A stretch of DNA of 64,000 nt, taken from Candidatus Woesearchaeota archaeon. Lineage in GTDB: Archaea; Nanobdellota; Nanobdellia; Woesearchaeales; UBA583. How positions within the stretch are numbered: position 1 is the first letter of the stretch; every line of letters begins with the position of its first letter. The stretch spans positions 552,713-616,712 of the forward strand of contig OZ242164.1 in assembly GCA_965205335.1 (NCBI GenBank). Reading direction: 5' to 3'. The translations under genes were made by a program, and so were the position numbers. Shown in pieces: positions 16,572-60,417 of this stretch. The notes under the pieces were generated by a model, which was not told the origin of the DNA, searched no databases, and worked only from the letters and a program-made list of their open reading frames with translations.

Positions 16572-19500
16572 ATGGCTCAATATATTTGTAAACTAAAATT
16601 AAACTATATGGAACTAGTCAAAGATGATACAATTAAAAAAATCATACTAGTTTTAGTTCTTCTTTTTGGAGTATCCTTAGTTCTCGGAGCAACAAGCAAT
16701 GGCGAGCCAGATTTTTATGATGATCCCTATGCACCTAACTCTTATGATGATCCCTACTCTTCTGGATCTTATAATGATCCCCATACACCTAACTATGATG
16801 ATCCCTACACTCCTGGATTTTATGATGATCCCTATGCACCTGGCTATTATGATCCCCATACACCTAACCATGATGATCCCTATGCACCTGGCTATTATGA
16901 TCCCCATACACCTAACTATGATGATCCCTACACTCCTGGATTTTATGATGATCCCTATACACCTGGATTTTATGATAATAATTATGATGCTGTGGATGGA
17001 GTTTGCGGTGTAGATGTTGATACATGTAAAAACGGGACCTACAAGAGCCTTCTGGATAATTCAACCCATTATTTATGGAATTGCATAGGATTAAATGGTG
17101 GAAGTGATGCATCTTGCAGTAAACCAAAATCTTCTACTGATGGAGTATGTGATAATTCTGGAAGAAATAGATGTTCAAGTGGAAGTTCTAATGATGGAGC
17201 ACATGCAGATACAACTTGTGAGCATAGATGGCGTTGTGATGGAGTACGTGGAGGAAGTAATTCGGGTATGTGCAGTATAGTCAAACCAAGCCGAATTGTA
17301 AATGGAGTATGTGATAATTCTGGAAGGAATAGATGTTCAAGTGGAGATGATAATGATGAGGCTGTCACAGATACAACCACTCACTATAGATGGCGTTGTG
17401 GTGGAAGTTGTGGTGGAAGTAATTCAGGAACGTGTAGTTATCCTATACCACCATCTTCTATTGATGGTGTTTGTGGTTCAAGTGTTAATAGTTGTATTGA
17501 TGGAACTTTGAGTGATATTGGAGATAATTCAACCCATTATTTATGGAATTGCATAGGATTAAATGGTGGAAGTGATGCATCTTGCAGTAAACCAAAATCT
17601 TCTACTGATGGAGTATGTGATAATTCTGGAAGAAATAGATGTTCAAGTGGAAGTTCTAATGATGGAGCACATGCAGATACAACTTGTGAGCATAGATGGC
17701 GTTGTGATGGAGTACGTGGAGGAAGTAATTCGGGTATGTGCAGTATAGTCAAACCAAGCCGAATTGTAAATGGAGTATGTGATAATTCTGGAAGGAATAG
17801 ATGTTCAAGTGGAGATGATAATGATGAGGCTGTCACAGATACAACCACTCACTATAGATGGCGTTGTGGTGGAAGTTGTGGTGGAAGTAATTCAGGAACG
17901 TGTAGTTATCCTATACCACCATCTTCTATTGATGGTGTTTGTGGTTCAAGTGTTAATAGTTGTATTGATGGAACTTTGAGTGATATTGGAGATAATTCAA
18001 CCCATTATTTATGGAATTGCATAGGGTTAAATGGCGGAAGTAACGCTTCATGTAATGAAAGAATATCATTAAATGAAGATGATAATACCTCAAATAGAAA
18101 TAATTCTAATAATAATTCAGAAAAGATTAAATTAAATATTATTTTTGGCTCATATTATGATAAATTATACCGTCCTTCTCAAGAACATATTCAACTTGAA
18201 TTTTCACAGAGAAATCTCTTTATGAATTGCAATGAGTTTGAAATCGATATTACACTAAATAATGAGTTTAACTACAAATATGATTTTCAAAAAAGAGTGA
18301 TTCCTGTGCATCTTGGTATTGGTCTTTTCGACATAACACTTGATGAACTCAGAAATGAATCAGACACTGTTAAGTATAACGCAGTTCTATCTGGAAAATG
18401 TGAAAACAATCCTAACAAAAGAACAACACTCTTATCGCAAGAAGGAACATTTCAAATACCTCCTTTTGATGTTACCTATGATCGGCTTACTAATAAGATA
18501 AGAATTAAACTCCCTGGATATACCCATTTAGAAAATTATGATATATATATGTTTAATATTACATTACACAATAAATTTAGTCTCACGTCTATATTTGAAC
18601 AACTTTCAAATAGAAAAGAATCATTTATAGAATTTAGTGTTGAACCTTCATTATTAGATAAACTTAGAGAAGAACCAGACTTAGTTAAATACAATGCAAT
18701 TCTTTATGGAGGAAAAACTGTAGGAGGGGATGAAAACCATTTGAATTTCAGCAAAATACTTGGTTCACAAGAAGGACTGTTTCTAATCCAGTTTCTAACC
18801 CTGTATGGTGAACAGTATGGTGAAGAAGGATGTGGGGGATACTGTGATATAGGACCTTTTCTATGGATGGGTGATGGAGATCACTCAAAATATGACTTAT
18901 TTTTTGTATTTGAGGGCAAAACAGTTGAGGAAGTAGAGGACCAATTAGATAGACATTTTAGAAACGGAGATTATTCTTTGTTTAAAACAAACCCTTTTAT
19001 TGAACAAGAAGATAAGTTTAATATTTATTATGCAATAATTTCAGATGCATATGATTATAAACTGAATAAGGAATGTAAATGGGGAACTTATCCCAGACCA
19101 GATTCTCATTTCAACAACATCTTCGCTCAATATGATTGGATAGATGGAGAAGTTCATTTTAGTCAGAACCCATCTGTATGGCCTTATGCTAAGTATGGTA
19201 AGTATATTCAGATGTCTTATGCTTGTTACAGATCTGTTTGGGGTGTCAATTGGGATAAAACTTTTGTCCATGAATTTGGGCATCTGTTCGGCTCTTTGAG
19301 AGATGAATACATTTATCCTTCTTTATCAGATAATAATGCTCGTTCACATGACAGAAAAAATTGTCTTTACATAAGGGAACTAGTGGGTAAAAAATGTGAA
19401 AATGGATGTGAACTAAAAGGAACTCACAGATGGGAACATATTCCAAACTTTGATGGAGAAGTACTCTCTGGATGTAAACATCCTCTTCTTTTTAGGGGTG

Positions 19501-19616
19501 AATTTAATAGTATCATGAGAAACGAATTGCAATTTTATAAAGACACTTGGGCAGGTGGTTGGGGTCCAGTTAATGAGTATTATCTAAGAGAAAAGTTAGA
19601 GGAGAATTATAGTTAA
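16572..19616 (+). CDS. Large surface protein: signal anchor, Tyr/Pro/Asp-rich 9-aa repeats, duplicated Cys-rich modules and a C-terminal M64-like (IgA-peptidase type) zinc metalloprotease domain
   Basis: N-terminal hydrophobic segment; (DDPYxPGxY) x about 12; modules DGVCG...THYLWNCIGLNGGS...C; C-terminal VHEFGHLFGSLRDEY matches the M64 HEFGHxFxxLxDEY signature. Confidence 0.7.
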   Translation: MAQYICKLKLNYMELVKDDTIKKIILVLVLLFGVSLVLGATSNGEPDFYDDPYAPNSYDDPYSSGSYNDPHTPNYDDPYTPGFYDDPYAPGYYDPHTPNHDDPYAPGYYDPHTPNYDDPYTPGFYDDPYTPGFYDNNYDAVDGVCGVDVDTCKNGTYKSLLDNSTHYLWNCIGLNGGSDASCSKPKSSTDGVCDNSGRNRCSSGSSNDGAHADTTCEHRWRCDGVRGGSNSGMCSIVKPSRIVNGVCDNSGRNRCSSGDDNDEAVTDTTTHYRWRCGGSCGGSNSGTCSYPIPPSSIDGVCGSSVNSCIDGTLSDIGDNSTHYLWNCIGLNGGSDASCSKPKSSTDGVCDNSGRNRCSSGSSNDGAHADTTCEHRWRCDGVRGGSNSGMCSIVKPSRIVNGVCDNSGRNRCSSGDDNDEAVTDTTTHYRWRCGGSCGGSNSGTCSYPIPPSSIDGVCGSSVNSCIDGTLSDIGDNSTHYLWNCIGLNGGSNASCNERISLNEDDNTSNRNNSNNNSEKIKLNIIFGSYYDKLYRPSQEHIQLEFSQRNLFMNCNEFEIDITLNNEFNYKYDFQKRVIPVHLGIGLFDITLDELRNESDTVKYNAVLSGKCENNPNKRTTLLSQEGTFQIPPFDVTYDRLTNKIRIKLPGYTHLENYDIYMFNITLHNKFSLTSIFEQLSNRKESFIEFSVEPSLLDKLREEPDLVKYNAILYGGKTVGGDENHLNFSKILGSQEGLFLIQFLTLYGEQYGEEGCGGYCDIGPFLWMGDGDHSKYDLFFVFEGKTVEEVEDQLDRHFRNGDYSLFKTNPFIEQEDKFNIYYAIISDAYDYKLNKECKWGTYPRPDSHFNNIFAQYDWIDGEVHFSQNPSVWPYAKYGKYIQMSYACYRSVWGVNWDKTFVHEFGHLFGSLRDEYIYPSLSDNNARSHDRKNCLYIRELVGKKCENGCELKGTHRWEHIPNFDGEVLSGCKHPLLFRGEFNSIMRNELQFYKDTWAGGWGPVNEYYLREKLEENYS
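16720..16985. repeat. Imperfect 27-nt tandem repeats encoding DDPYxPGxY
   Basis: gatgatccctaYRcMcctggMtWttat units repeated in frame inside the large ORF. Confidence 0.6.
17055..17990. repeat. Two identical 468-bp tandem copies (17055-17522 and 17523-17990) with a diverged third start
   Basis: Sequence beginning ataattcaacccattatttatggaattgcatag recurs at 17055, 17523 and 17991; the ORF-track pairs 17069-17380/17537-17848 etc. are identical. Confidence 0.85.
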
Positions 19617-25778: not shown

Positions 25779-25906
25779 GGCTCTGTCCGAAAATTCAAGA
25801 GAACTTAAAATATTGTATCAGTAAAGCAATTTTTGACAAATTATTTTTTTCTTTGACTGAATATAGTTAGCATAGATTTTGGAAAAACCAATTTCCGGAC
25901 AGATGG
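25779..25906. mobile_element. MITE copy A (about 128 bp, TIR GGCTCTGTCCGAAAATT family)
   Basis: Left end ggctctgtccgaaaatt, right end ccggacagatgg (degenerate); flanked by GAATTC on both sides. Confidence 0.6.
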
Positions 25907-25914
25907 ACGAATTC

Positions 25915-26046
25915 GTGGCTCTGTCCGGAAAGTCAAGAGAGCATAAAATATTATATAAATAAAACAATTTTTGACAAATAATTTCTTTCTTTGATTGAAC
26001 ATAACTAGCATAGATTTTGAAGAAAACAATTTCAGGACAGAGCCAC
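25915..26046. mobile_element. MITE copy B (about 132 bp), tandem to copy A
   Basis: Left TIR GTGGCTCTGTCCG, right TIR CGGACAGAGCCAC, flanking GAATTC duplication (25909-25914 and 26047-26052). Confidence 0.6.
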
Positions 26047-26093: not shown

Positions 26094-27170
26094 ATGGACC
26101 TAAAATTCGGGCTAATTAGTCTGGGGAGTACCTCCTCTAAGATGATTTTGGAAGAAGCAAAAGCTTACTTTGATGTAGTAGATAGTATTGACCTAAAAAA
26201 GATTGAAATCAAAATTAACGATAGTATATCAGTATTATATGATGGAGAATCTCTCCCTGAATATGACTGTCTATACTTTAAGGGGAGTTTTAAATACTCT
26301 ACACTTCTTTTCTCTCTCTCTGAGATCTTTAAGGATAAATGTTATATTCCTATCAGACCAAACGCTCATATAATTGCTCATAACAAATTTATGACTCATC
26401 TTCTCTTATCTTCCGATAAATCCCTTAAAATGCCTTCAACTTACTTTACAGCAAAGATTTCCGAAACTAAAGCTTTCTTAAAAACTCTTAATTATCCTAT
26501 TATTATGAAATTTCCTTCTGGAACTCATGGTAAAGGAGTTATCTTTACAGAAAGTTATTCAAGCGCCAGTTCTATGATTGATGCTTTAGATGTCTTCGAT
26601 CAGCCTGTAATCATTCAGGACTACGTTAATATAAAGTCAGATCTAAGAATTATTGTTGCAGGAGATAAAGTCGTTGGAGCTATGAGGAGGATTGCAAAAG
26701 CCGATGATGTCCGTGCAAATGCTCATGCAGGAGGCAATGCTGAACCCTATTTACCAACTCCTGATGTCAAAAGAATGTCAATTAATGCTGCAAAAAAAAT
26801 TGGAGCTGATATTTGCGGTGTAGATATTATAGAAACTGATTATGGACCTCAGATTCTTGAAGTAAATACTTCACCTGGGCTTCAGAAGATTACAGAGGTT
26901 ACAAAGAAAAACATAGCAAAGGAAATTGTTGAGTTCCTATATGAGAAAACAAAGGAAAGAAAAGAAAGAAAAGACAAAACCATTGCAAAATCAATGGTTG
27001 GAGAATTGGGAATTGATGAGATTGGAATTCGTGAACTTGAAGGAGATATTAGAATAGTTAACGGAAAAATTGTTCTGCCTGAATTTGTATCAAAGATGAG
27101 TGATTTTAGTGATGGGGAAAGCGTTAACTTAAAAGTTTCAAAAGACAGTGTAACAATTGGCAAAAACTAA
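26094..27170 (+). CDS. ATP-grasp ligase of the RimK/LysX/CofF/MptN type (amino-acid or glutamate ligase) with a C-terminal extension
   Basis: FPSGTHGKGV, IIQDYVN, DLRIIVAGDKVVGAMRRIAKADDVRANAHAGGNAEPY, ICGVDIIETDYGPQILEVNTSPGL. Start set at Met 26094, 28 nt downstream of TATA aaagttttataaa. Confidence 0.65.
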   Translation: MDLKFGLISLGSTSSKMILEEAKAYFDVVDSIDLKKIEIKINDSISVLYDGESLPEYDCLYFKGSFKYSTLLFSLSEIFKDKCYIPIRPNAHIIAHNKFMTHLLLSSDKSLKMPSTYFTAKISETKAFLKTLNYPIIMKFPSGTHGKGVIFTESYSSASSMIDALDVFDQPVIIQDYVNIKSDLRIIVAGDKVVGAMRRIAKADDVRANAHAGGNAEPYLPTPDVKRMSINAAKKIGADICGVDIIETDYGPQILEVNTSPGLQKITEVTKKNIAKEIVEFLYEKTKERKERKDKTIAKSMVGELGIDEIGIRELEGDIRIVNGKIVLPEFVSKMSDFSDGESVNLKVSKDSVTIGKN

Positions 27171-27538
27171 TCTTTCAGAACACCTTTAAGCGTTCCTGAA
27201 ACTTTAATTATTTCTATTTTTGCTGGAGTTTTATCTATTCTCTGAATCAGAGAAAGAACTCCAATTAGTTTCTCCTTTGTTCTCGTATCAACTTTTATAA
27301 CTAATTCCTGATTTTTTTCATTAAACTTATCTCTAAGAATCCAAAACCCTGATTTTGATATCTCAATACTCCCTAAAAACATTATAACCTGCGATAATAT
27401 GCTCTCTGATAGTTCCTTAAATTCAAATTTCTTATCAGAAACTATTTTTGCTCTTATGAACCTCTTCTTTGTTCTAAGCGTTGGCGAGAGAGGTTTTAGT
27501 TTTGAATCATAAGAAGCATTCTTAGTTTTATTTAACAT
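27167..27538 (-). CDS. RNase P protein subunit Pop5 (Rnp2)
   Basis: LKPLSPTLRTKKRFIRAKIVSDKKF resembles the archaeal Pop5 N-terminus (LPPTLR.KKRYI.FEV); 123 aa. Confidence 0.55.
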   Translation of the reverse strand: MLNKTKNASYDSKLKPLSPTLRTKKRFIRAKIVSDKKFEFKELSESILSQVIMFLGSIEISKSGFWILRDKFNEKNQELVIKVDTRTKEKLIGVLSLIQRIDKTPAKIEIIKVSGTLKGVLKD

Positions 27539-31706: not shown

Positions 31707-33845
31707 CTAAACTTTTTTAACCAAATCCTTATAATACATAAGTCCCAACTGAGGTCCTTTCTTTGTCACAACATTGGCGCTATTTCCCGCTGCATACTCC
31801 ATTGCCTTTTTAATTGTACATCCCTTTGAATAAAAATACATAAAAGTTGCTCCAAAACAATCCCCTGCTCCTGTTGTATCAACAATCTTATCTGGCTTGA
31901 ATGCAGCAGTAAAATACTCCATATTCCCATCATAAGCGTAAGAACCATTCGCTCCATCCGTTACAATAACCAACTCACACGCAAGTTTCTTCAAACCCCT
32001 AAGAACAGAACTAAAAGACTGCTCCTTTCCCAAAATCTCACAAGCCTCCTCATAATTCAAAATAATAACATCACAAATCCTAATTAAATCCATTAACTTA
32101 GGTTCAGTGTGAATTAAAGAAGGACTTGCTCCATAAAAAATCTTTGCTCTCTTATTTCTCTTCTTTATAATCTTAGCAAGCTCTAACTGAGTCTTAAAAC
32201 TCTCCCCACTAAGAGCTGTAAAATAATAAAAATTTGAAGAAAATTTATTATAATCAAAATTATCTAACTCTAAAAACTGATTTGAACCCCTATAAGTAAT
32301 AATCAATCTGTCATTATCTTTTGTATCCAAAAGAATTGACTTGGCAATTGGTTTTTTTGTCTTCTTTGACTCAATTAATCTCACATTCTCTATATCAAGC
32401 CTCTCCTTTAAAAAATCAAACTCATTATATGAAATTTTTCCTAAATAGGCAACCCTTGCTCCCAACCTTGCAAGACAAACAGACATATTAACTCCCCCCC
32501 CCCCAAGTTCTTTCTTAAAATCATCCTTAACCCTAACTTTCTCACCAATATACAAATTTGAGAACTTCTCATTAACACTAACCACTGTATCCAAAACATT
32601 TGAACCCACTACTATAAAATCCTCTCTTCCTTCAAACTTAGAACATAACATCTCAAGAACTTCAATTCCAAAAAGTCTCTCATTTGACAAAAACTTAACC
32701 AAAGCCCCTCCAGCAAGACTAACATACGAAAACTTATCCAAACACTTGAACTTCTCTGCAACAGTTACACTATGCCCTCCTCCCACAAAAGAAAACCCCT
32801 TTGAATTTACAATCTCTCTTAGAATGCTCTTAGTTCCAACATCACACCCTTTAAGCTCAAAATTCCCGCAAGGCCCCTTCAAATAAATACCTCCTGCCTG
32901 CCTTAACAATAACGAATACTTTCTTATAGTATCACTTCCTATATCATTTATCATATTCTTATCCAAAAACTTCCTATTACTACCCAACCCACTTGCTTTT
33001 ATCTCAACCCTTCTTCCATTCAAAACTAATGCAACATCACTTGGAAATAAAATCTTCTTTGGATACTTTCTAAGAAGTCCCCTTAAATCCTTCTCAACTG
33101 ATAAATAATTATTCTCTCTTAGAAAATCCAGTTTCTTCCCCAGATAAAAACCATTAACATGCAGTGCAATCTCCCCAATAACACCTGTTAGCAAAATACA
33201 ATCAACTTCCTTTAACCTAAGAGACTTCTCAATCAAAGGAATTAAATCATCAGGCTTAGCTCCTCCAAAAACATATACTAATGGCCTATGAACTAATGAA
33301 ATACTATTTAACCCTCTAAGTTCTCTATCCATTAACCTTCCTGCAATTACTGGAATCTTTGAAAAACCAACAACAGACGTCTGCTTCCTATGACATACAG
33401 AAAACGCATCAAAAACATAATAATCGAAAACCCTCTCAAGCGACTTTATAATATTACCCTTCTTATTTACATCCAACTCATCATCATAGAACCTCAAATT
33501 CTCAAGCAAAAGAATCTCCCCACATTTTAGAGATAAAATCCTATCATCTCTTCTCTTATCATCCAAATCACAAAAACCAATCTTCCTATTAATACACTTT
33601 GAAATCAGCTTAGAATGCTGCTTTAAAGAAATACAATCCACCTTCCCAGTCCTGCCCTGATGCGCCAAAATAACTACTCTTGCTCCCTTACTTACAAGTT
33701 CATCTATTGTCGAAGACGCCTTAACAATTCTCTCATTTAGAACCACCTTTGACTTAATAACAGGAGAATTAATATCAATCCTTAGCCCTACAATCCTATC
33801 CTTTAAATCAAAACTATCAAGAGTGAAATAATTATGCATAAACAC
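31707..33845 (-). CDS. pgk: Fusion protein: phosphoglycerate kinase (N-terminal, about 400 aa) plus PfkB-family carbohydrate or nucleoside kinase (C-terminal, about 300 aa)
   Basis: PGK: RIDINSPV...VVILAHQGRTG...LLLENLRFY. PfkB: GGGGVNMSVCLARLG ... DTTGAGDCFGATFMY...GNSANVV. Confidence 0.75.
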   Translation of the reverse strand: MFMHNYFTLDSFDLKDRIVGLRIDINSPVIKSKVVLNERIVKASSTIDELVSKGARVVILAHQGRTGKVDCISLKQHSKLISKCINRKIGFCDLDDKRRDDRILSLKCGEILLLENLRFYDDELDVNKKGNIIKSLERVFDYYVFDAFSVCHRKQTSVVGFSKIPVIAGRLMDRELRGLNSISLVHRPLVYVFGGAKPDDLIPLIEKSLRLKEVDCILLTGVIGEIALHVNGFYLGKKLDFLRENNYLSVEKDLRGLLRKYPKKILFPSDVALVLNGRRVEIKASGLGSNRKFLDKNMINDIGSDTIRKYSLLLRQAGGIYLKGPCGNFELKGCDVGTKSILREIVNSKGFSFVGGGHSVTVAEKFKCLDKFSYVSLAGGALVKFLSNERLFGIEVLEMLCSKFEGREDFIVVGSNVLDTVVSVNEKFSNLYIGEKVRVKDDFKKELGGGGVNMSVCLARLGARVAYLGKISYNEFDFLKERLDIENVRLIESKKTKKPIAKSILLDTKDNDRLIITYRGSNQFLELDNFDYNKFSSNFYYFTALSGESFKTQLELAKIIKKRNKRAKIFYGASPSLIHTEPKLMDLIRICDVIILNYEEACEILGKEQSFSSVLRGLKKLACELVIVTDGANGSYAYDGNMEYFTAAFKPDKIVDTTGAGDCFGATFMYFYSKGCTIKKAMEYAAGNSANVVTKKGPQLGLMYYKDLVKKV

Positions 33846-34035: not shown

Positions 34036-36360
34036 ATGAATACAAAAACAAAAGCCGCCCAAAAAGTTGTCCAGAAAAAGTCCCAAGCAAAACGTACAAA
34101 AAAAGCAGAAACAGTTGTTACAAAAGAAGATGCAAAACTCTTAGATGATACTCTAAATATGGTTAAATCACTAAACCAAAAAATTAGTACTGTCAGTAAA
34201 GCAAAAACAAAACTCCAAAAGGATGTATCAGAACTAAGCAGAAGAATTGACTCAAAGGATAAAAACCAAACAGATGATTCAAAGTTAAAAGACGAAATAA
34301 TAGAAGAATTTAAACCAATCTTTAATAAACTAAATCCTCAGACATTAAAAACCCAGTTAAATAAAGAAATTAATTCATCCCTTAAACAGGAAATTGAAAA
34401 AGCAAAATCCCAAGTAAAATCAGATACGAAAAAAGGAGCAGAAGAAATCTCAAAGAAAGTAGCACATTTAGAGAAGGATTTAATGCAGTCAATAAAATCA
34501 AATGAAAAACTAAAAAATGAACTAAACAGATTAAGCAACTCAAAATTAGGTGAAGATATTTTTATAGGAGTTGAAAAGAAAATCCGTGAACATGTTGAAA
34601 TCTCCCTAAGAAAAATTTCAAAGGAAATTTCAGAGTTAAGAGTTAATCCACAAGGACATCAGGACAAATCCTTAAACAATAAGATAAGTAACATTGAAAA
34701 GTCTTTAAACAAACTTGAAAAGGAATTGAAAAAAACAGAGGATAAAACATCTAAAAGCATTCAAAAAGAAGTAGAAAACATCAAAAAGAAGATTCTAAGC
34801 GATTTGAAATCAAAAGATTTAAACCATAAAAGAGAACTTGAAGTATTTAAGATTGAAGTATCAAAGCATATCAGGGCATTACTTGATGGATTACATGCAG
34901 AATACAACCTACTAAAAGAGAAGGCTCAGGAGTCCCAGATGGAAGAAGAGAAATTCTTAGAGGAAGTAGCGCAGGGAAATTTGGACAGATATGAATTATT
35001 TTCACAAAGGGTTGATAAGGCAATAAAATCAAACAAAGAAACCGAAGAGAAACTTGTGGAATTAACTTATAACAATAAAGTTGAACTTGAAAACATATTT
35101 GCGCAGCAAATCAAAGAGGACTTAGCACAGAAAACAATTTCCAATAATGAGTTCTTATTAAATCTAAAAAAATTAGCAAAAGAGAAACAGGAGGAATTGT
35201 CAGAGAATATTGATAACAAATTAGTTAATTCAGTTGCCCAATTTGAAGGAAAGTTTCATGAGTACATGCAGGATTTTGACAAGGCCTTAAAGGAGAAAGA
35301 AAAAGAGTTTTTAGAAAAGTTAAAAGTAGTTGAGAATGAACGTTATGAAGTTATCTCTCAAATGGAAGAATTTAAAGAAGAAATATCAAAATTAACAAAA
35401 GAATATATGGCAAACCTTCATGATGAACTTGAGAGAATTAAGAAAAAAGAAGTTAAATTAGGTAATGAGAAAAACCAGTTTCTTGTACATATCAATGAAT
35501 CATCAAAGGCAAGAAAATTAGAAATTGAAGATCTTGCAAATCAAATGAAAGATAGAGTTAAGGGAGTTTTAGAGGAAGAGAGAGACGCATTTGACAGACA
35601 TGAAGAAACATTTAGAGGAGTGTTTTATGAAAAAGTCCAGAATCTGCATGATTTCTCAAAGAAAAAACTAGAAAATATTGAAAGAAAGTTTGTTGACAAG
35701 AATCTAAAATATGTTAGTGATAAAATTAATTCAATGCTTGAACCTCTAAGATTACTTGAAGAAAGTGTCAATGCAAAGGAAGGTGAAATTTCAAAATTAG
35801 GTCAGGAAATCAACAGCAAACAGGAAGTCTTCTTAGAAGATTTTCATTCACATCAAAAGAATTTAAATCAGGATTTTACAAAACTTGAGAAAAAGTTAAA
35901 TGAAAAACTTGAAGATTCAGACAAGCAAATTATAAAATCAAGAAGTGTTGTCAAAGCTATTCTTGAAGAAGTTGAATTCTCAATGACAAAAATGGATAAT
36001 TTAATCAATTCAAAGATAGAGGAAATTAATGCAGGCTTAAACAGATTAAAATCCATAGAAAGTAGACTCGTGGGAATTTCACAAATAGATTATAAGATTA
36101 ATCAGATAGAATCAAATATGAACAATATGCATGGTAAAATCAATGAAATTGAAAATCTAAATCATACACATGGGTTTGAATCACTTAATTTATTAGTTTC
36201 AACAATTGGAGAATACGAGCAAAATTTAATTGCCTTAGTAAAATCACTTAAATCAGAAGGAGTTTCAGAAGAGCACATTAAAACCATTCTAAGACAGAAA
36301 GGTCACCCTATGCTATATGTCTCAATGGTCTTGGAAAATCTGAACTTCTTAGAGCACTAA
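34036..36360 (+). CDS. Long coiled-coil protein (774 aa, Lys/Glu-rich), function unknown
   Basis: Heptad-rich low-complexity sequence throughout; no enzymatic motifs. Confidence 0.5.
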   Translation: MNTKTKAAQKVVQKKSQAKRTKKAETVVTKEDAKLLDDTLNMVKSLNQKISTVSKAKTKLQKDVSELSRRIDSKDKNQTDDSKLKDEIIEEFKPIFNKLNPQTLKTQLNKEINSSLKQEIEKAKSQVKSDTKKGAEEISKKVAHLEKDLMQSIKSNEKLKNELNRLSNSKLGEDIFIGVEKKIREHVEISLRKISKEISELRVNPQGHQDKSLNNKISNIEKSLNKLEKELKKTEDKTSKSIQKEVENIKKKILSDLKSKDLNHKRELEVFKIEVSKHIRALLDGLHAEYNLLKEKAQESQMEEEKFLEEVAQGNLDRYELFSQRVDKAIKSNKETEEKLVELTYNNKVELENIFAQQIKEDLAQKTISNNEFLLNLKKLAKEKQEELSENIDNKLVNSVAQFEGKFHEYMQDFDKALKEKEKEFLEKLKVVENERYEVISQMEEFKEEISKLTKEYMANLHDELERIKKKEVKLGNEKNQFLVHINESSKARKLEIEDLANQMKDRVKGVLEEERDAFDRHEETFRGVFYEKVQNLHDFSKKKLENIERKFVDKNLKYVSDKINSMLEPLRLLEESVNAKEGEISKLGQEINSKQEVFLEDFHSHQKNLNQDFTKLEKKLNEKLEDSDKQIIKSRSVVKAILEEVEFSMTKMDNLINSKIEEINAGLNRLKSIESRLVGISQIDYKINQIESNMNNMHGKINEIENLNHTHGFESLNLLVSTIGEYEQNLIALVKSLKSEGVSEEHIKTILRQKGHPMLYVSMVLENLNFLEH

Positions 36361-36374
36361 ATTTTTTAATGCTA

Positions 36375-37223
36375 TCAATTAATACTTTCTATTTCAACAG
36401 GCTTTGTACGATAAGTAACTAAAAACTCTGACTTATCGTACAACAGGTTAGCAGTAATTCCCAAGTTTTCCATTTCCATAATAAGAACGCAAATATTATG
36501 GCATACAATTTTACATAACACTTCGTTTACCTGTGCTGTCCTGTTTTTAGATTTAACATTATCCCCAAACTTCTTTTTCACCATACTAAATGTAGTTTCA
36601 ACATTACTTCGTTTATGATAATGTTCCATAAACTCATCCTGATTATAAAGGAAATAATGTAATGCTTTCTTCCAGATTATACCTCGTTTATGTTTGGATT
36701 TTTCATTTACATTATTTTTGAAAGGAATATAAGGAACTGCTCCTACTTCATTGATTGCTTCTAAGTTTTCCTTACTGATATACGCCTTATCTCCTGAAAA
36801 CTCCTCTATTGTGAAGACTTCATTAGTCTTATCCAGTAACTCTTTTAACTGTGGGCTGTCGTGGTCAAATTCAGACGTTATTTTAACTGCTGGAATGATG
36901 TTAGTATGAACTCCTGAAACTATGTGACATTTAACCCATTTCTTATATCTGTCCTGTGTGGAATGCTTATACTTATTCCAGTTCTGCACTATTGACGTAC
37001 CAAATCCCGAACTGTCTATTGCAAAATTGGTTTCAACTTCTTTCAATGGCTGTGATGTAATCTTAATCAGGTTGTGCAGAATCTCTGAAACCTCTTTTTT
37101 ATTAAAGTAAACTTTAAGTGTTGTAAATGGAACTTCCTTAGTTATGTACTCAAAATCCTTGCTTAACTGCATATCACAGGTAAATCTACGCCCAGAAACC
37201 CCTGAATACACTTTAAATATCAT
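36375..37223 (-). CDS. IS transposase orfB (DDE_Tnp_1 / IS4-IS5-like catalytic domain)
   Basis: DSSG...GDKAY...YHKRSNVETTFSMVKKKFG (Y-x2-R-x3-E-x6-K signature). The ORF reads through the left TIR into flanking DNA for its last 8 codons. Confidence 0.75.
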   Translation of the reverse strand: MIFKVYSGVSGRRFTCDMQLSKDFEYITKEVPFTTLKVYFNKKEVSEILHNLIKITSQPLKEVETNFAIDSSGFGTSIVQNWNKYKHSTQDRYKKWVKCHIVSGVHTNIIPAVKITSEFDHDSPQLKELLDKTNEVFTIEEFSGDKAYISKENLEAINEVGAVPYIPFKNNVNEKSKHKRGIIWKKALHYFLYNQDEFMEHYHKRSNVETTFSMVKKKFGDNVKSKNRTAQVNEVLCKIVCHNICVLIMEMENLGITANLLYDKSEFLVTYRTKPVEIESIN

Positions 37224-38062
37224 TGAGTTAAAATATCGTGTATAGGTGTTTTAGGTCGCCCAAACTTATAACCTTCCTCCTGTGAGTTCTTAACTAAATC
37301 GCTCAACAATTTCATAAACTTGTCCTTCTCTGTTTTCTGTGCCTCATCATAAGCACTCCAATTCTGTGTGTATATCTTCTTAGTTACTTCCTGTTTTAAA
37401 GTTCCGTCGGTATAAATTGTCTGAGTTACAGTATATTCTACTGCAAAGATATGCTTACATTTAGAGTGACGCTTCTTATAGTCCATACAACTGCATTTAG
37501 CACCAAAACCATTACTCTTAACCACATAGCACATTTTAGTATTCGTTTGGCTCGTACTATCTACGTTGTATCATTCTCCTTCTTAATCTTGAAGTCCTTT
37601 GCAATTTCAAGACCTCTTTCTTGTCTTAAGTTTTGTTGTGGTTGTTTGTTTTGTACCATAATAAGTAATAATTATTACTCTTAAAATATTTATTAATACC
37701 TATACCTAATAATCCTGAAAAAATATCCTAAATTATTAAAGAGAATATAAAAATTGCTAAAAAGTCAAGAATAGAGGAATTAAAAGCAATGTCCAAAATT
37801 AATGAAACTCCTATAATTTCAATTTTTGGTTCAATACAAAAAAACTAAGGACAAAAACATTTAAATATCTCTACCTTTTTATTGTATAAGAGATTTCGCT
37901 TAATTTCACTCGTGGTTGTTTGTTTTTAGGCGAAATCTCTCTTATTTTTAAATAATATATATAAATATTAAAGTTTAGTAAATTTTATGACAAACCAAGT
38001 AATTTAAGACTTTTCGTACAGATTCCTTACTTTTCGTACAAAACACACTTTTCGTACAAAGC
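36400..38062 (-). mobile_element. IS element (1663 bp) of the IS4/IS5-type DDE superfamily with a separate SWIM-zinc-finger orfA
   Basis: 17-bp TIRs GGCTTTGTACGATAAGT (36400-36416) and ACTTTTCGTACAAAGCC (38046-38062). 9-bp direct target duplication ATTTCAACA at 36391-36399 and 38063-38071. Three subterminal acttttcgtaca repeats at 38010-38062. Confidence 0.7.
37220..37534 (-). CDS. IS orfA: SWIM zinc-finger DNA-binding protein
   Basis: CSCMDYKKRHSKCKHIF (CxCxnCxH SWIM); stop overlaps the orfB start in ATGA, indicating translational coupling. Confidence 0.6.
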   Translation of the reverse strand: MCYVVKSNGFGAKCSCMDYKKRHSKCKHIFAVEYTVTQTIYTDGTLKQEVTKKIYTQNWSAYDEAQKTEKDKFMKLLSDLVKNSQEEGYKFGRPKTPIHDILTQ

Positions 38063-38108
38063 CATTTCAACAATAATCTTTATAAAAGAATTCCAATTAT
38101 TTTCAAGT

Positions 38109-52081: not shown

Positions 52082-52210
52082 TGGCTCTGTCCGAAAATTC
52101 AAGAGAACTTAAAATATTGTATTAATAAAACAATTTTTGACAAATAATTTTTTTCTTTGATTGAAGATAGTTAGCATAGATTTTGGAAAAAACAATTTTC
52201 GGACAGAGCC
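52082..52210. mobile_element. MITE copy C (TIR GGCTCTGTCCGAAAATT family)
   Basis: tggctctgtccgaaaattc ... aattttcggacagagcc, flanked by CTATTAG at 52075-52081 and 52211-52217. Confidence 0.65.
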
Positions 52211-52253: not shown

Positions 52254-53093
52254 ATGGAAAAAATTATAGACGCTCTTCTAAAAAAAATAAAATCAAAACC
52301 ACAAATTAAGCATTTAGAAGACAAATTTATACTAGAGAGAATTAGAAAGTTTCTCAAAACAAACGGTGATATTAGAGTAAAACTTGAAAAAGAATTTAAG
52401 TTAAAACAAGATAAAATAACTAAATCAAAAGTTTTCAAGGAAATTGTAAAAGCAATCAGATGGGAAATAGGAGTAATCTATGGAAGTTTTCTGACAAAGA
52501 GCTTTCCAAAAAAAAATAAATTAATTGAAAGCAATTACAAAGACTTACTAAAACTTCACAAATCAACAAAAGAGAGAATTGAACTATATGAAAAAATTTA
52601 CAGACAGATACTCAGATGGTATAAACCAAAAAAAATAGGGGACTTAGGATGCGGATTAAATCCTATCTCTTATGAAATAATTGAAAAAATTCTAAAATAC
52701 AAACCAGAATACTTTGCATCAGATTTAAACTCTGAGGACATAGAATTTTTAAATAACTACTTTGAATCAAACGACATTAAGGGAAAAGCCAAAGTATATA
52801 ACATAACAAACCTTGAAATATTAAAAGATGAAGATTTTAAAGAGTGTGATTTAATATTCTTATTTAAGGTTCTTGACAGTTTTGAATTCATTAAAAAAAA
52901 TATCTCAAAGAAATTGCTTGATGAAATAAAATCAAAACATATAGTTGTTTCATTTCCAATGAAATCCCTTATTTCAAAGAAGACTTTTGATTTCAGTAAA
53001 AGAAACTGGTTTAAGAATTACATAAATAAAATGAATTGGGATTACAAAGCATTTGAAGTTGAAAACGAAATATTTTATTTAATTAAAAAATAG
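52254..53093 (+). CDS. Hypothetical protein with a class-I SAM-methyltransferase-like motif
   Basis: IGDLGCGLNP resembles motif I (DxGxGxG); the rest is unassigned. Confidence 0.35.
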   Translation: MEKIIDALLKKIKSKPQIKHLEDKFILERIRKFLKTNGDIRVKLEKEFKLKQDKITKSKVFKEIVKAIRWEIGVIYGSFLTKSFPKKNKLIESNYKDLLKLHKSTKERIELYEKIYRQILRWYKPKKIGDLGCGLNPISYEIIEKILKYKPEYFASDLNSEDIEFLNNYFESNDIKGKAKVYNITNLEILKDEDFKECDLIFLFKVLDSFEFIKKNISKKLLDEIKSKHIVVSFPMKSLISKKTFDFSKRNWFKNYINKMNWDYKAFEVENEIFYLIKK

Positions 53094-53347
53094 ACAATGC
53101 ATAAGCCACGTTCTGTAATTTCTGTAGCACCTAAACATTTAGGCAACGAAATTCGTATAATTCATCTAAGCGAGCATTAAACTCTTGCACCAGTCAGTTT
53201 GTTTCAACTTTGAAGGATTTATAACGCTCAACTAATATCATCGCTAAATCAACCAAAGGGATTTTCTGTATAGGCTGTTTCCATCCTCTGACTATAACTA
53301 AGGGTGCGTGGACTTTCCTCCCAAAAGGGTTTATACTAATTGCCTAT
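53086..53347 (-). ncRNA. rnpB: RNase P RNA (minimal archaeal type), about 250 nt
   Basis: Minus-strand transcript has GGGAGGAAAGUCCACGC (CR-I, P4 5' strand) near the 5' end, CUUAGAUGAAU, and ACAGAACGUGGCUUAUG (CR-V, P4 3' strand; AAGUCCACG pairs with CGUGGCUU) near the 3' end, followed by oligo-U. The region is GC-richer than its surroundings and has no ORF. Confidence 0.65.
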
Positions 53348-53394
53348 TGCAATAAAACATACGAGATTTTATTTATAAAACTATCTCCACTTGG

Positions 53395-53511
53395 GGCTTT
53401 GTACGAAAAGTAACAATTGCTTTAAAAAAGATTAAAACATTATATTATATATTGATAATTTTAATTATTTCTAATTTATTGTTAATTCTTAATGACTTTT
53501 CGTACAAAGCC
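53395..53511. mobile_element. MITE (117 bp) derived from the IS at 36400-38062
   Basis: TIRs GGCTTTGTACGAAAAGT and ACTTTTCGTACAAAGCC, 9-bp target duplication TCCACTTGG (53386-53394 and 53512-53520), AT-rich non-coding core. Confidence 0.6.
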
Positions 53512-53576
53512 TCCACTTGGAAATTCTACAACCCTCACTAAAAAAATTTTATAAAAGGATGTCAATTAAACAATTT

Positions 53577-56350: not shown

Positions 56351-56400
56351 ATTCATTAAATTGAAGATAGTTAGCATAGATTTTGGAAAAAACAATTTTC
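56351..56400. repeat. Truncated right half of the GGCTCTGTCCG-family MITE (solo end)
   Basis: ttgaagatagttagcatagattttggaaaaaacaattttcggacagagcc is identical to the right 50 bp of copy C; the left half is absent. Confidence 0.55.
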
Positions 56401-56454
56401 GGACAGAGCCTTTTAAATAAAAGTTTTATAAATCAAAGTTTCTTAGTTTTACTT

Positions 56455-56989: not shown

Positions 56990-57577
56990 ATGAATATTGA
57001 CATAACTAAAATTAATATTGGTGAAATATCTCAGGTAATAAAAAGAGGAATATCGTCATATTATTTATGTGAGGAAGGTAATATTGAGAATTTTGTAAAT
57101 ATTAAAGATATTCAAAATGGAGTTATAAATATGGAATTCGTTGAAAGAGTTAAGATTAAAATTACAAATTCAACTAAAAATTCACAATTAGAAGTTGGAG
57201 ATTTGGTTTTAGCAGTCAAAGGCTCTAATTATAAGTGTGGTTTAGTTGATGAAAATTCAGAAGGTTCATATATTAGCAGTAATTTAATTGCAATTAAACT
57301 TAAACATCAATACAATTCTGAACTCGTTTTGGAATATTTGAACAGTTCTTTTGGTCAAAAGGAATTAAATATAAGAGCAAGTGGCAACTTTCAAAAATCA
57401 TTATCTATTAAGTCCATCTTAGATATTGAGATACCTATTTTTCCTAAAGATAAGGAAAATGTATTAGTTAAGTTTTTTGAGTTAAGTAAGAAGTTAGTTA
57501 AATTAAATATGCAAGAGTTAAAGTTAAGAAGCAAGTTAAATAATGAGATAATTGGAGAGGTTTTAAAAAATGATTGA
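56990..57577 (+). CDS. hsdS: Short (single-TRD) Type I restriction-modification specificity subunit HsdS
   Basis: N-terminal INIGEISQVIKRG start of a TRD and C-terminal conserved coiled region IPIFPKDKENVLVKFFELSKKLVKLNMQELKLRSKLNNEII; overlaps hsdM by 8 nt. Confidence 0.55.
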   Translation: MNIDITKINIGEISQVIKRGISSYYLCEEGNIENFVNIKDIQNGVINMEFVERVKIKITNSTKNSQLEVGDLVLAVKGSNYKCGLVDENSEGSYISSNLIAIKLKHQYNSELVLEYLNSSFGQKELNIRASGNFQKSLSIKSILDIEIPIFPKDKENVLVKFFELSKKLVKLNMQELKLRSKLNNEIIGEVLKND

Positions 57578-59069
57578 AAATACACTAACAGATGAACAGT
57601 TAAAAAGCAAAGTATGGCAGGCGGCAGATATATTAAGAGGTTCTATTGATTCATCAGATTATAAGAACTATATTTTCGGATTTTTATTCTTAAAAAGGTT
57701 GTCTGATGTTTTTGAAGAGAAAGTGCAGAAGATTTTAGATGAAGGAGAGAGTAAAGGTGTTGCATATGATCCTGATGAACACAAATTCTTTGTTCCCGAA
57801 AAAGCAAGATGGAAAAATATTAAGAAACAGCCTTCACAAATTGGTGATTATCTAAACAAAGTTGCAGCAGAGTTGGAGGATGAAAACAAATCATTGGACG
57901 GAGTTCTCAAAACTATTGATTTTAACAGCGAGCAGTTAGGAGATGTAAAGCAGAGAGATTCTACTTTATTGCAGTTAGTTCAGCACTTTTCAGCAATTCC
58001 TTTGAGAAATTCTGATATACACAGAGCTGACGCTTTAGGAGATGTATATGAGTATTTAATTGAGAAATTCGCTGATGATTCCGGAAAGAAAGGTGGAGAG
58101 TTTTATACACCAAAGGAAGTCGTTAAATTGATAGTTGAATTGTTAGACCCAAAAGAAGGAATGAGAATTTGCGACCCCACCTGCGGTTCTGGTGGTATGC
58201 TAATTGAAAGTGCTCATCATATTAAGGAAAGCAAAGGTAACGAACATAATATTTCTTTGTTTGGACAGGAAAAGAATGTCGGAACTTGGAGTATATGCAA
58301 GATGAATATGCTTTTGCATAATCTTCCCGATGCAGATATTAGAAAAGGAGATACTATTCGTGAGCCTAAATTATTATCTGACGGGCAGTTAGTATTGTTT
58401 GATAGAGTAATCGCCAATCCTCCTTTCTCCTTGGACAGATGGGGTATTGAAACCGCTCAAAATGATGGCTTTGGAAGGTTCATTTATGGAATACCTCCCA
58501 AGTCCAAAGGGGACTTTGCGTTTATTGAGCATATGATTGCAACAACTAATCAGGATGGAATGGTTGGAGTTGTAGTTCCTCACGGAGTTTTATTTAGAGG
58601 AGCATCTGAAGGAAGAATAAGGACTAATTTTATTGAAAAAGATTTAATTGAGGCTGTTGTTGGATTGCCTTCAAATCTGTTTTATGGCACAGGCATTCCT
58701 GCCGCAATTTTAGTGTTTAACAAATCCAAGTCTGCAGACAGAAGAAATAAGGTATTGTTCATTGATTCATCGCAGAATTTTGAAAGCGGAAAAAATCAGA
58801 ATAAGTTAAGAAGCAGTGATATTTCTAAAATTGTTAATGCATTTAAGGATTATAAGACTATTGATAAGTATTCAAGAGTTGTAGAGATTAAAGAGATTAA
58901 AGAGAATGATTACAATTTGAATATTTCAAGATATGTTGATACAACGCCAGAGGAAGAGCCCATTGACATTAAGGCGACTATAAAGGAGTTGAATGATATT
59001 GAGAAAGAGAAAGCAGAAGTAGAAAAAGAGATGAACAAATATTTAGAAGAGTTGGGATTTAAGAGGTGA
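57570..59069 (+). CDS. hsdM: Type I restriction-modification DNA methyltransferase subunit HsdM (N6-adenine)
   Basis: HsdM_N region, GEFYTPKEVVKLIVELLDP, motif I DPTCGSGGMLI, motif IV NPPFS. Confidence 0.9.
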   Translation: MIENTLTDEQLKSKVWQAADILRGSIDSSDYKNYIFGFLFLKRLSDVFEEKVQKILDEGESKGVAYDPDEHKFFVPEKARWKNIKKQPSQIGDYLNKVAAELEDENKSLDGVLKTIDFNSEQLGDVKQRDSTLLQLVQHFSAIPLRNSDIHRADALGDVYEYLIEKFADDSGKKGGEFYTPKEVVKLIVELLDPKEGMRICDPTCGSGGMLIESAHHIKESKGNEHNISLFGQEKNVGTWSICKMNMLLHNLPDADIRKGDTIREPKLLSDGQLVLFDRVIANPPFSLDRWGIETAQNDGFGRFIYGIPPKSKGDFAFIEHMIATTNQDGMVGVVVPHGVLFRGASEGRIRTNFIEKDLIEAVVGLPSNLFYGTGIPAAILVFNKSKSADRRNKVLFIDSSQNFESGKNQNKLRSSDISKIVNAFKDYKTIDKYSRVVEIKEIKENDYNLNISRYVDTTPEEEPIDIKATIKELNDIEKEKAEVEKEMNKYLEELGFKR

Positions 59070-59073
59070 TAAT

Positions 59074-60417
59074 ATGAGAAAGAAAGATATTCTTAAATTA
59101 ATTGAAACTGGAGAAGGTTATAAATTGGAGTTTAAGGAGACTTTTAGTAGTTCTATCGGAAAGGAAGTTTGCGCTTTTGCAAATGCATCAGGAGGTAAGA
59201 TTATTCTGGGAGTTAGAGATGATAATACAATTAGAGGTTGCTCATTAAATAATTCAGAATTTTCACGAATACAAGATATTGCACGAAATATAGAACCTTC
59301 TTTTAATGTTAGCATTGAACAGGTTGATGATTTAGTTGTTATTGATGTTTCAGAGGGCAAAGAGAAACCTTATTCTGTTAATGGGCATTTTTATATTCGT
59401 CAGGGGGCAAACTCCCAGAAGTTAAGAAGAGACGAAGTAAGAGGTTTTTTTCAAAGAGAGAATTTAATCAGGTTTGATAATAAAGCAAATCCTGATTTTG
59501 ATATTAGAAATGATTTTGACAGGGAAAAATTTAAAGCATTTGTTCAGAAATTAGGAGTTGATAAATCATTACCACAGAAGAATTTGTTGCAGAATTTAGG
59601 TTTAGTAACCGATGGAAAATTAAATAATACAGGGGTTTTGTTTTTTTCGCATAGAATTTCAAAGTTCTTTCTTAATTCTGTTATTTGTTGCGTTTTGTAT
59701 GATGGCAGAACAAAGACAAAGATTTTAGACAAGAAAGAATATGATGGGGATTTTGTTTCAAACTTTAATGATGCTGTGCTTTTTGTTCTGAGAAACCTCA
59801 GAACTGAATTTGTCATTGAGAAGATTGAGCGGGAGGAAAAAGAAGAGATTCCAGAAAATGCTTTAAGGGAGTTGATTATTAATGCAATGGCACACAGGGA
59901 TTATTTTTCAGAAGGACGCATATTAATTGAGATTTTTTCAGATAATGTTAAAATATCAAATCCCGGCAGTTTGTTGTTTGATAAAAAAGATTTTGGGAAA
60001 AGGAGTCTTTCAAGAAATCCCTTAATTGTTGATATAGCCCACAGATTAAAATTTGTTGAGCGTTTAGGTTCAGGTATTGAGAGAGTCAGAGAGATTTTAA
60101 AAGACAGAGTTAAATTTGAGATAAGTTCAGATTGGTTTGAGGTTATAATTAAGAGAAGGCAGATAAGAATTATTGCAGAAGAAACAGAGAATTACAGAAA
60201 GAGTTCACCAAAAGTTCATCAAAAAAGTTCACCAAAAATAATTGAGTTAATGAGAGAAAATCCTAATATAACAATAACAGAACTTTCCCTGATTATTGGA
60301 ATAACAGAGAGGGGAATAAAGAAGAATATTGCTAAATTAAAACAGGAAGGAATAATAAAAAGAGTTGGTTCATACAGGGCTGGTTATTGGAAAGTATTGG
60401 GGGATAATAAAAAATGA
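59074..60417 (+). CDS. AlbA_2 (divergent-AAA/Schlafen-like) plus HATPase_c_4 plus C-terminal wHTH protein embedded in the Type I R-M operon
   Basis: ETGEGYKLEFKETFSSSIGKEVCAFANASGGKIILGV (AlbA_2); ELIINAMAHRDYFSEGRILIEIFSDNVKISNPGSL (HATPase_c_4); C-terminal HTH ITITELSLIIGITERGIKKNIAKLKQEGII. Confidence 0.7.
   Translation: MRKKDILKLIETGEGYKLEFKETFSSSIGKEVCAFANASGGKIILGVRDDNTIRGCSLNNSEFSRIQDIARNIEPSFNVSIEQVDDLVVIDVSEGKEKPYSVNGHFYIRQGANSQKLRRDEVRGFFQRENLIRFDNKANPDFDIRNDFDREKFKAFVQKLGVDKSLPQKNLLQNLGLVTDGKLNNTGVLFFSHRISKFFLNSVICCVLYDGRTKTKILDKKEYDGDFVSNFNDAVLFVLRNLRTEFVIEKIEREEKEEIPENALRELIINAMAHRDYFSEGRILIEIFSDNVKISNPGSLLFDKKDFGKRSLSRNPLIVDIAHRLKFVERLGSGIERVREILKDRVKFEISSDWFEVIIKRRQIRIIAEETENYRKSSPKVHQKSSPKIIELMRENPNITITELSLIIGITERGIKKNIAKLKQEGIIKRVGSYRAGYWKVLGDNKK

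Follow-up and report, generated by a model that had tools for sequence, protein, structure and literature searches.

The question raised by this locus is whether an RNase P RNA gene can lie in plain view and still be passed over. RNase P matures transfer RNAs by trimming their 5´ ends. We analysed a 64,000-nucleotide stretch of contig OZ242164.1 from a Candidatus Woesearchaeota archaeon (the whole stretch is called the window below, and all coordinates are window positions). An Rfam scan of the window at gathering thresholds reports three tRNAs only, and no RNase P RNA. An initial annotation, made from the sequence alone, had proposed an unannotated minimal RNase P RNA on the minus strand. The region lies between an ABC transporter gene and a methyltransferase gene. 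We conclude that this region is, with high confidence, a functional gene for the catalytic RNA of RNase P of a DPANN archaeon of the Nanoarchaeota/Woesearchaeota group:

53090..53347, minus strand: RNase P RNA gene of 258 nt, bounded by the outermost bases of P1 (RF00373 match and explicit helix model)

Identification of the RNase P RNA gene

The archaeal RNase P RNA family RF00373 has a single match in the window. It aligns over model positions 1-288 of 288 to 53090-53347 on the minus strand with 59.6 bits (Rfam, E-value mode), with E = 4.2e-16 in a 601-nt search and E = 4.4e-14 in the whole 64-kb window. The search to which the initial annotation pointed is thus significant by E-value and full length, while its score lies under the curated gathering threshold of 84, a point to which we return. 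The five conserved regions (CR-I to CR-V) are all present in canonical order with their universally conserved nucleotides intact, and each of the motifs that had been listed occurs on the minus strand (GGAAAGUCC, ACAGAACGUGGCUUA, GCUUAGAUGAAU and UUUUUU). CR-I reads GAGGAAAGUCC at 53320-53310, with GGAAAGUCC at 53318-53310, and is unchanged in all homologs. As had been predicted, the two strands of P4 are complementary: AAGUCCACG (53315-53307) pairs with CGUGGCUU (53110-53103) through eight Watson-Crick pairs, and U53312 is bulged, which is the canonical geometry. The catalytic domain as a whole is complete (P1, P2, P3, the P4 pseudoknot with its bulged U, P5, CR-I, CR-IV and CR-V). Its elements, together with CR-II and CR-III, are listed here, RNA position 1 being window position 53347:

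53339..53347, minus strand: P1 5´ strand, AUAGGCAAU, 9 bp with 53090-53098
53332..53336, minus strand: P2 5´ strand, GUAUA, 5 bp with 53155-53159
53320..53329, minus strand: P3 hairpin, CCC-UUUU-GGG (RF00373 alignment and helix model)
53307..53320, minus strand: CR-I and P4 5´ strand, GAGGAAAGUCCACG, U53312 bulged
53303..53306, minus strand: P5 5´ strand, CACC, pairs with GGUG at 53188-53191, lineage-invariant
53263..53269, minus strand: CR-II (J11-12), ACAGAAA
53201..53207, minus strand: CR-III, UUGAAAC
53160..53171, minus strand: CR-IV, GCUUAGAUGAAU
53155..53159, minus strand: P2 3´ strand, UAUAC, directly 3´ of GAAU
53102..53116, minus strand: CR-V and P4 3´ strand, ACAGAACGUGGCUUA, distal pairs of P4 covary
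53090..53098, minus strand: P1 3´ strand, AUUGUCUAU (helix model and lineage alignment)

Most of what had been said about the stretch stood up. Its length, given as about 250 nt, is 258 nt. The GC enrichment is real and modest (flanks 0.22-0.30, stretch 0.36-0.37, RNA alone 0.37-0.38). No open reading frame (ORF) of at least 40 aa occurs on either strand between 53094 and 53516, and the only gene overlap is the stop codon TAG of the convergent methyltransferase gene (53091-53093), inside the P1 3´ strand. The word minimal was too strong, since the length falls inside the 235-330 nt range of 16 other DPANN RNAs and the losses described below are already known from type M and other archaeal RNAs (PMC4919922, PMC12974513).

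Homologs and their distribution

GTDB species genomes were scanned with a three-anchor pattern that left the helices unconstrained. This gave 11 loci, ten of them labelled Woesearchaeota, Iainarchaeum or 'archaeon' and one 'Methanosarcinales', all of which match RF00373 (80-149 bits, 235-330 nt). A metagenome scan for a short P4 to CR-II spacing like that of the window copy added five true matches; another candidate from that scan, L017, was set aside as a chance match. In a viral collection, a loose three-motif pattern found 12 chance matches in coding DNA, and a specific pattern found none.

Closer relatives were reached through homologs of the adjacent FmrO-like methyltransferase, which led to the syntenic contigs L030, L031 and L033 (90, 88 and 70% protein identity). 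In each, an RNase P RNA lies between the same two genes, and because these RNAs score 55.1, 58.5 and 53.6 bits, the whole lineage is under the Rfam threshold. Synteny traced through the methyltransferase holds down to about 70% protein identity only: three contigs with homologs of 59-63% identity (L032, L034 and L035) have other neighbours and no RNase P RNA nearby. The 10-kb flanks of aEF-2 in three relatives (82-83% identity) are non-syntenic and carry no RNase P motifs. Among the 20 distinct DPANN RNase P RNAs collected, seven score below 84 bits.

One of the metagenomic RNAs, the AT-rich L013, is independent of the window's lineage and is the sole collected RNA outside that lineage to share the full architecture of the window RNA. 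Its P1, P2, P4, P7, P9 and inserted hairpin are built from entirely different sequences, which supports each of these elements; its P7, for example, is GCACCUU/AAGGUGC in the same place, and its P9 is GUCAA-GAAA-UUGAU at the same position.

Covariation and conservation

Covariation in P4 and P2 was read from invariant-motif anchors, alignment-free, in 18 DPANN RNAs. The three distal pairs of P4 occur in eight sequence variants (ACG/CGU, GCG/CGU, AUA/UAU, GCC/GGC, GCU/AGC, ACC/GGU, GUC/GAC and GGC/GCC), and all 54 of the 54 cells are paired, 53 as Watson-Crick pairs and one as G.U. The covariation in homologous loci by which the initial annotation had proposed to judge P4 is therefore present. 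For P2, the 5-6 nt right after GAAU find their complement, perfect or with wobble pairs, at the expected 5´ position in every one of the 18 RNAs, with about 12 different sequences.

Within the lineage, an alignment of four sequences (the window RNA, L030, L031 and L033; about 95% identity) has 97.5% of the named-structure cells paired, compared with 28-41% when partners are slid by 1-3 columns. Two double compensatory changes are seen, U-A to C-G in P2 of L033, and A-U to G.U (L031) to G-C (L033) in P19. Nine further changes are one-sided and wobble-compatible, and two changes of this wobble-compatible kind are in P19. In P1 of L033, a G.U has become G-C and an A-U has become G.U. The changes in P12 of L030 and L033 either keep pairing (C-G to U.G, and U-A to U.G twice) or fall inside a 3-nt bulge.

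The RNA is 95.0, 96.1 and 89.2% identical to its counterparts in L030, L031 and L033, while the adjacent methyltransferase gene is 87.8, 88.5 and 75.6% identical, with substitutions concentrated at third codon positions. This higher conservation of the RNA indicates that it is under purifying selection.

Architecture of the RNA

The remaining elements are as follows:

53288..53293, minus strand: P7 5´ strand, AGUCAG (RF00373 alignment and helix model)
53188..53197, minus strand: P7 3´ strand, CUGACU, abutting the P5 3´ strand GGUG; conserved J5/15 CAAG comes next
53273..53286, minus strand: P9 hairpin, GGAUG-GAAA-CAGCC, GNRA loop, one internal A.G
53208..53258, minus strand: P12 with a kink-turn (K-turn)-like 5´-GC-GAU-GA...GA-GC-3´ (53244-53226)
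53172..53184, minus strand: P15, a closed 13-nt hairpin, GAGU-UUAAU-GCUC, without L15 loop, P16, P17 or P6
53117..53153, minus strand: P19-type two-part hairpin, 37 nt, base AAUUUC/GAAAUU, tip GCCUAA/UUAGGU

In the RF00373 alignment P8, P10, almost the whole of P11 and the P16/P17 block of 36 nt are deleted, and the same blocks are deleted or inserted in L033 and L013. The P8 columns of the model are absent from all three RNAs, leaving a gap of 2 nt between P7 and P9, and J5/7 is 9 nt. At the site of P10/11, UAU faces AAA; these nucleotides could form at most one to three A-U pairs, and the helix is unsupported because they turn into C.A or G.A in relatives. The P16/P17 block is cut from 36 nt to 4 nt, and the P15 loop UUAAU lacks GGU. 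A P15 block of only 9-14 nt is common to 18 of 18 DPANN RNAs. The K-turn-like motif in P12 is aligned to the GAuGAU...cuGAg block of the Rfam consensus.

The extra hairpin is a 34-nt insertion relative to RF00373 (dG -8.2), and it is named P19 because it is positioned between the P2 3´ and P4 3´ strands. A stable hairpin stands at this site in 17 of 18 DPANN RNAs (12 of 13 outside the window's own lineage). In L001-L011 it was imposed by the search pattern; of the five metagenomic RNAs that were unconstrained there, four have it and L014 does not.

Two further observations concern these segments. The CR-V hexamer ACAGAA (53116-53111) has a second copy 9 nt upstream of it, at 53125-53120. L030, L031 and L033 keep this duplication, and the upstream copy belongs to the 3´ strand of the P19 base helix. 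An alternative pairing of UAUAG with CUAUA (RNA positions 51-55 with 75-79) was set aside; it would need a pseudoknot with P7, and its register is lost in L033.

Weighing the identification

A number of results weigh against the identification. The RF00373 score is well short of the curated gathering score, which is an operational cutoff and no biological criterion; the shortfall arises because the model helices P8, P10/11 and P16/17 are deleted, the P19 insert is unmodelled and the helices are AT-rich, while the core motifs are intact and so do not account for it. The predicted folding energy of the RNA is indistinguishable from that of shuffled sequence (z = -1.16). Covariation within the lineage, with only four sequences, is non-significant in a shuffle control (65/500), and P9 has an A.G mismatch in four of four lineage members. 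Finally, only one of the five expected protein subunits (Pop5) is encoded inside the window, Pfam having found no Rpp21, Rpp29, Rpp30 or L7Ae among 50 scanned ORFs of the window, although the lack of these four in 64 kb of a 1.2-Mb genome is uninformative.

Could the locus be a decaying pseudogene, with activity supplied from another place in the genome, either by a second RNA copy or by a protein-only enzyme? The conservation described above speaks against this: in three relatives the RNA has changed less than the flanking coding DNA, helix substitutions preserve pairing, including the two double compensatory ones, and CR-I to CR-V have kept every universally conserved nucleotide. The same reduced architecture also recurs in the independent L013, and HARP, the protein-only alternative, was found in no DPANN genome examined by Daniels et al. 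(PMC6380272). A pseudogene would fit the sub-threshold score, the missing P8, P10/11 and P16/17, and a mobile element inserted just some 15 bp from the TATA box on its upstream side; the insertion is, however, outside the promoter element, and that element is conserved. The data also cover a 64-kb window of a 1.2-Mb genome, and on balance we consider decay very improbable. Less credible still is a chance or convergent resemblance, in which the stretch would encode a different structured RNA or serve the ABC transporter or methyltransferase gene as a regulatory leader. The AT-rich sequence, unexceptional folding energy and location between two genes are what such a reading would draw on. However, the match runs along the full 288-position covariance model with the E-value given above, the order and spacing of five separate conserved motifs are correct, and the long-range P4 and P2 pairings covary in 18 homologs; a leader is further contradicted by orientation, the RNA being antisense to the genes on either side. 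The E-value and the covariation effectively refute a chance match.

A different question is whether this is a true type M RNA, which would have acquired its reductions through common descent or horizontal transfer with Methanococcales and Archaeoglobus. We made this comparison by published definitions and scoring. Type M is defined by the loss of P8, P16, the P6 pseudoknot and the P15 substrate-recognition loop (PMC4919922), and the window RNA has all four losses. It also keeps, as do the type M RNAs of Methanococcales and Archaeoglobus, the K-turn region in P12, where L7Ae binds in types A and M (PMC5499556), and its dependence on protein is likely to be similar. In contrast, Table 3 of PMC2858038 credits archaeal type A with P19 and scores type M as lacking P19 and having P10-11; the window RNA, with its P19 and vestigial P10/11, differs from type M in both. 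The host belongs to a different phylum, being a Nanoarchaeota/Woesearchaeota-type DPANN archaeon and not one of the Methanococcales or Archaeoglobus in which type M is found. Moreover, L002 and L008 share the closed P15 but keep P8 and a P10/11 of 7 bp, so that loss of P8 and P10/11 looks like a later, lineage-specific step. In a 2026 survey, such deletions are described as having arisen independently in many archaeal lineages, tolerated owing to five proteins (PMC12974513). We therefore give little credence to type M ancestry, and the reductions shared with type M are most likely convergent. The preferred reading is that of a functional DPANN RNase P RNA, most likely reduced independently of type M.

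Putative promoter and terminator, and gene neighbourhood

Putative signals for expression of the RNA flank it closely:

53370..53379, minus strand: TATA-box-like element, TTTATAAATA, its centre about 27 nt before the first base of P1
53085..53090, minus strand: oligo-U tract, UUUUUU, directly after P1, a likely archaeal terminator

The TATA-like element is invariant in L030, L031 and L033 and is present in the same arrangement in L013, and the RNA is probably transcribed from this promoter of its own at 53379-53370. The oligo-U tract is kept in L030 and L031 and reads UUUUUC in L033.

Upstream of the promoter, a 117-bp element resembling a miniature inverted-repeat transposable element (MITE) occupies 53395-53511, about 15 bp from the TATA box. 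Its terminal inverted repeats are 17 bp long (GGCTTTGTACGAAAAGT), and the direct repeat CCAAGTGGA(G) borders it at 53385-53394 and 53511-53520. L030 and L031 have the uninterrupted sequence TTTCCAAGTGAAGATAG at this spot, an empty site, so the insertion is recent. Weak Rfam matches to MIR2606/MIR8562 correspond to the hairpin of this element. At up to 3 mismatches the terminal-repeat motif occurs 11 times in the window, compared with 0.18 expected (25779-25933, 36393-38070, 52083-52210 and 56394-56410). Beyond the methyltransferase gene, two of these occurrences (52083/52194) make up another MITE-like inverted pair. A 1.68-kb element (36393-38070) has the same inverted repeats at its ends and contains most of a DDE_Tnp_1 transposase ORF (36375-37223, beginning 18 bp outside the repeat). 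The 1.68-kb element is the likely autonomous parent.

A homolog of the FmrO-like methyltransferase, P0063 (322 aa, 55% identity), is recorded with both PF07091 (FmrO) and PF01900 (Pop5). In that relative the methyltransferase would be fused or adjacent to Pop5, or the record could be a gene-calling artefact; in the window the methyltransferase gene directly adjoins the RNase P RNA.

Host and protein partners

The data agree with the reduced-genome archaeon that had been proposed as host: the source contig measures 1,199,749 bp (1.2 Mb), and the relatives by aEF-2 are DPANN archaea. The best named homologs of aEF-2 (80-81% identity) are from Nanoarchaeota, Candidatus Woesearchaeota and Nanoarchaeia archaea, and those of the methyltransferase from Nanoarchaeota, Woesearchaeota or Nanoarchaeales archaea. 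In addition to aEF-2, the window encodes ThrRS, SMC, TFE-alpha, archaellin, S8e and L15e. The Pop5 gene reported earlier was confirmed:

27167..27538, minus strand: Pop5 (Rpp14/Pop5 family), RNase P protein subunit (PF01900, 42.8 bits, cutoff 23, E 5.9e-11)

The three tRNA genes of the window lack an encoded 3´-CCA, which is consistent with an RNase P RNA without the GGU of the L15 loop (PMC4919922).

Several other genes of the window deserve mention. A 712-aa ORF at 31707-33845 on the minus strand joins a full phosphoglycerate kinase domain (PF00162, residues 9-387) to a likewise full pfkB-family carbohydrate kinase domain (PF00294, residues 423-700), an unusual fusion of two kinases. What looks like a small defence island at 57570-60417 on the plus strand comprises a type I HsdM (PF02384, PF12161) followed by a protein with Schlafen/AlbA_2, HATPase_c_4 and HTH domains. 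Two long plus-strand ORFs, 16572-19616 (1014 aa) and 34036-36360 (774 aa), have no significant Pfam domain; the 774-aa ORF has only a sub-threshold apolipoprotein-like coiled-coil match.

A model for the RNase P of this lineage

From the helices and conserved regions, and by analogy with characterized RNase P, we infer how the transcript would end, bind protein and act in catalysis. Transcription probably ends at the oligo-U tract (53090-53085). The core of P4, CR-I and CR-V with its bulged U would position the catalytic Mg2+, J5/15 and CR-IV would contact the tRNA acceptor end, and CR-II and CR-III would recognise the tRNA T-loop. Because P15 is a closed hairpin, base-pairing with a 3´-CCA is precluded. 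The T-loop module (CR-II, CR-III and P12) is attached through P7 and P9 only, because P8 is gone and P10/11 reduced. The K-turn in P12 would recruit L7Ae, as the published K-turn region suggests (PMC5499556), and the P19 hairpin would stack on P2 and extend that stack. The protein pairs Pop5-Rpp30 and Rpp21-Rpp29 presumably replace the missing RNA struts (L8-P4 and P6/P16/P17).

Significance

An RNase P RNA is here the expected, universal housekeeping gene and an additional member of a known family, and the main interest of the locus is as an annotation false negative. It is plausible that the gene is missing from the annotation of the source record, because all four lineage members score 53.6-59.6 bits against a threshold of 84. 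Pipelines that apply the Rfam threshold will report such genomes as lacking RNase P RNA. Misses of this sort matter because a lack of RNase P has been put forward as a biological peculiarity of at least one DPANN organism, Nanoarchaeum equitans. The RNA is also a well-supported example of trimming of the specificity domain, with no P8 and almost no P10/11 and with the T-loop module and L7Ae K-turn kept, and so bears on the replacement of RNA struts by protein in archaeal and eukaryal RNase P.

Comparison with known RNase P RNA types

With type A (the RF00373 consensus, Pyrococcus and Methanothermobacter) the window RNA shares P1-P5, including P4, P7, P9, the P12 K-turn region, P15 and CR-I to CR-V; it is without P8, P6, P16, P17 and the L15 internal loop, and its P10/11 is vestigial. 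The initial annotation puts type A archaeal RNAs at roughly 300 nt or more, and the window RNA is 258 nt.

The nearest comparison is with other DPANN archaea. The RNAs from Woesearchaeota and Iainarchaeota metagenome-assembled genomes and from metagenomes (L001-L016) have a closed P15 without P16, P17 and P6, lengths of 235-330 nt and identical conserved regions. Most of them score above the Rfam threshold, unlike the window RNA, and many keep P8 and the 7-bp P10/11 that it has lost. Iainarchaeota-type RNAs (L003, L005, L009, L012, L014 and L015) show another variation: the usual P8 position holds no hairpin, and an additional one stands between the 3´ strands of P10/11 and P5/7, as though the junction had its fourth arm on the opposite side. 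Gene context differs as well. At seven of 16 DPANN loci a large-subunit (LSU) ribosomal RNA (rRNA) gene lies upstream of the RNase P RNA on the same strand, at 94-108 bp (L002, L008 and L011), about 1 kb (L007 and L009) or 3-5 kb (L003 and L012), and where the distance is short the RNA could be co-transcribed with the rRNA operon. Unlike those seven, the window gene has no rRNA nearby.

P19 has a wide distribution. According to the 2026 survey (PNAS 2026, 298 archaeal RNAs; PMC12974513), it occurs in various archaeal and bacterial clades, varies in length, extends the stacking of P2 and is sporadically lost. The P19 of eukaryal nuclear and some bacterial RNAs (Geobacillus type B) has the same position, with no sequence similarity between lineages. 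Another extreme of archaeal reduction is the type T/P RNA of Thermoproteaceae (Pyrobaculum), in which almost all of the specificity domain is missing (PMC4919922). P7, P9, CR-II, P12 and CR-III are, in contrast, kept in the window RNA.

All of the individual deviations of the window RNA are thus already described in Archaea. Loss of P10/11 with P12 kept has no mention in the main text and consulted supplement of the 2026 survey (PMC12974513). One might tentatively see in the window RNA, L030, L031, L033 and L013 a distinct DPANN structural class, in which the P7-P10-P11 stack is cut to P7, P8 is lost and P19 is kept, though we think this unlikely. The P7-P10-P11 stack normally spaces the T-loop module from the active site, and its length is believed to fix how far along the tRNA the enzyme measures. 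If the class is real, the missing spacer would have to be replaced by protein or by a different arrangement of the domains.

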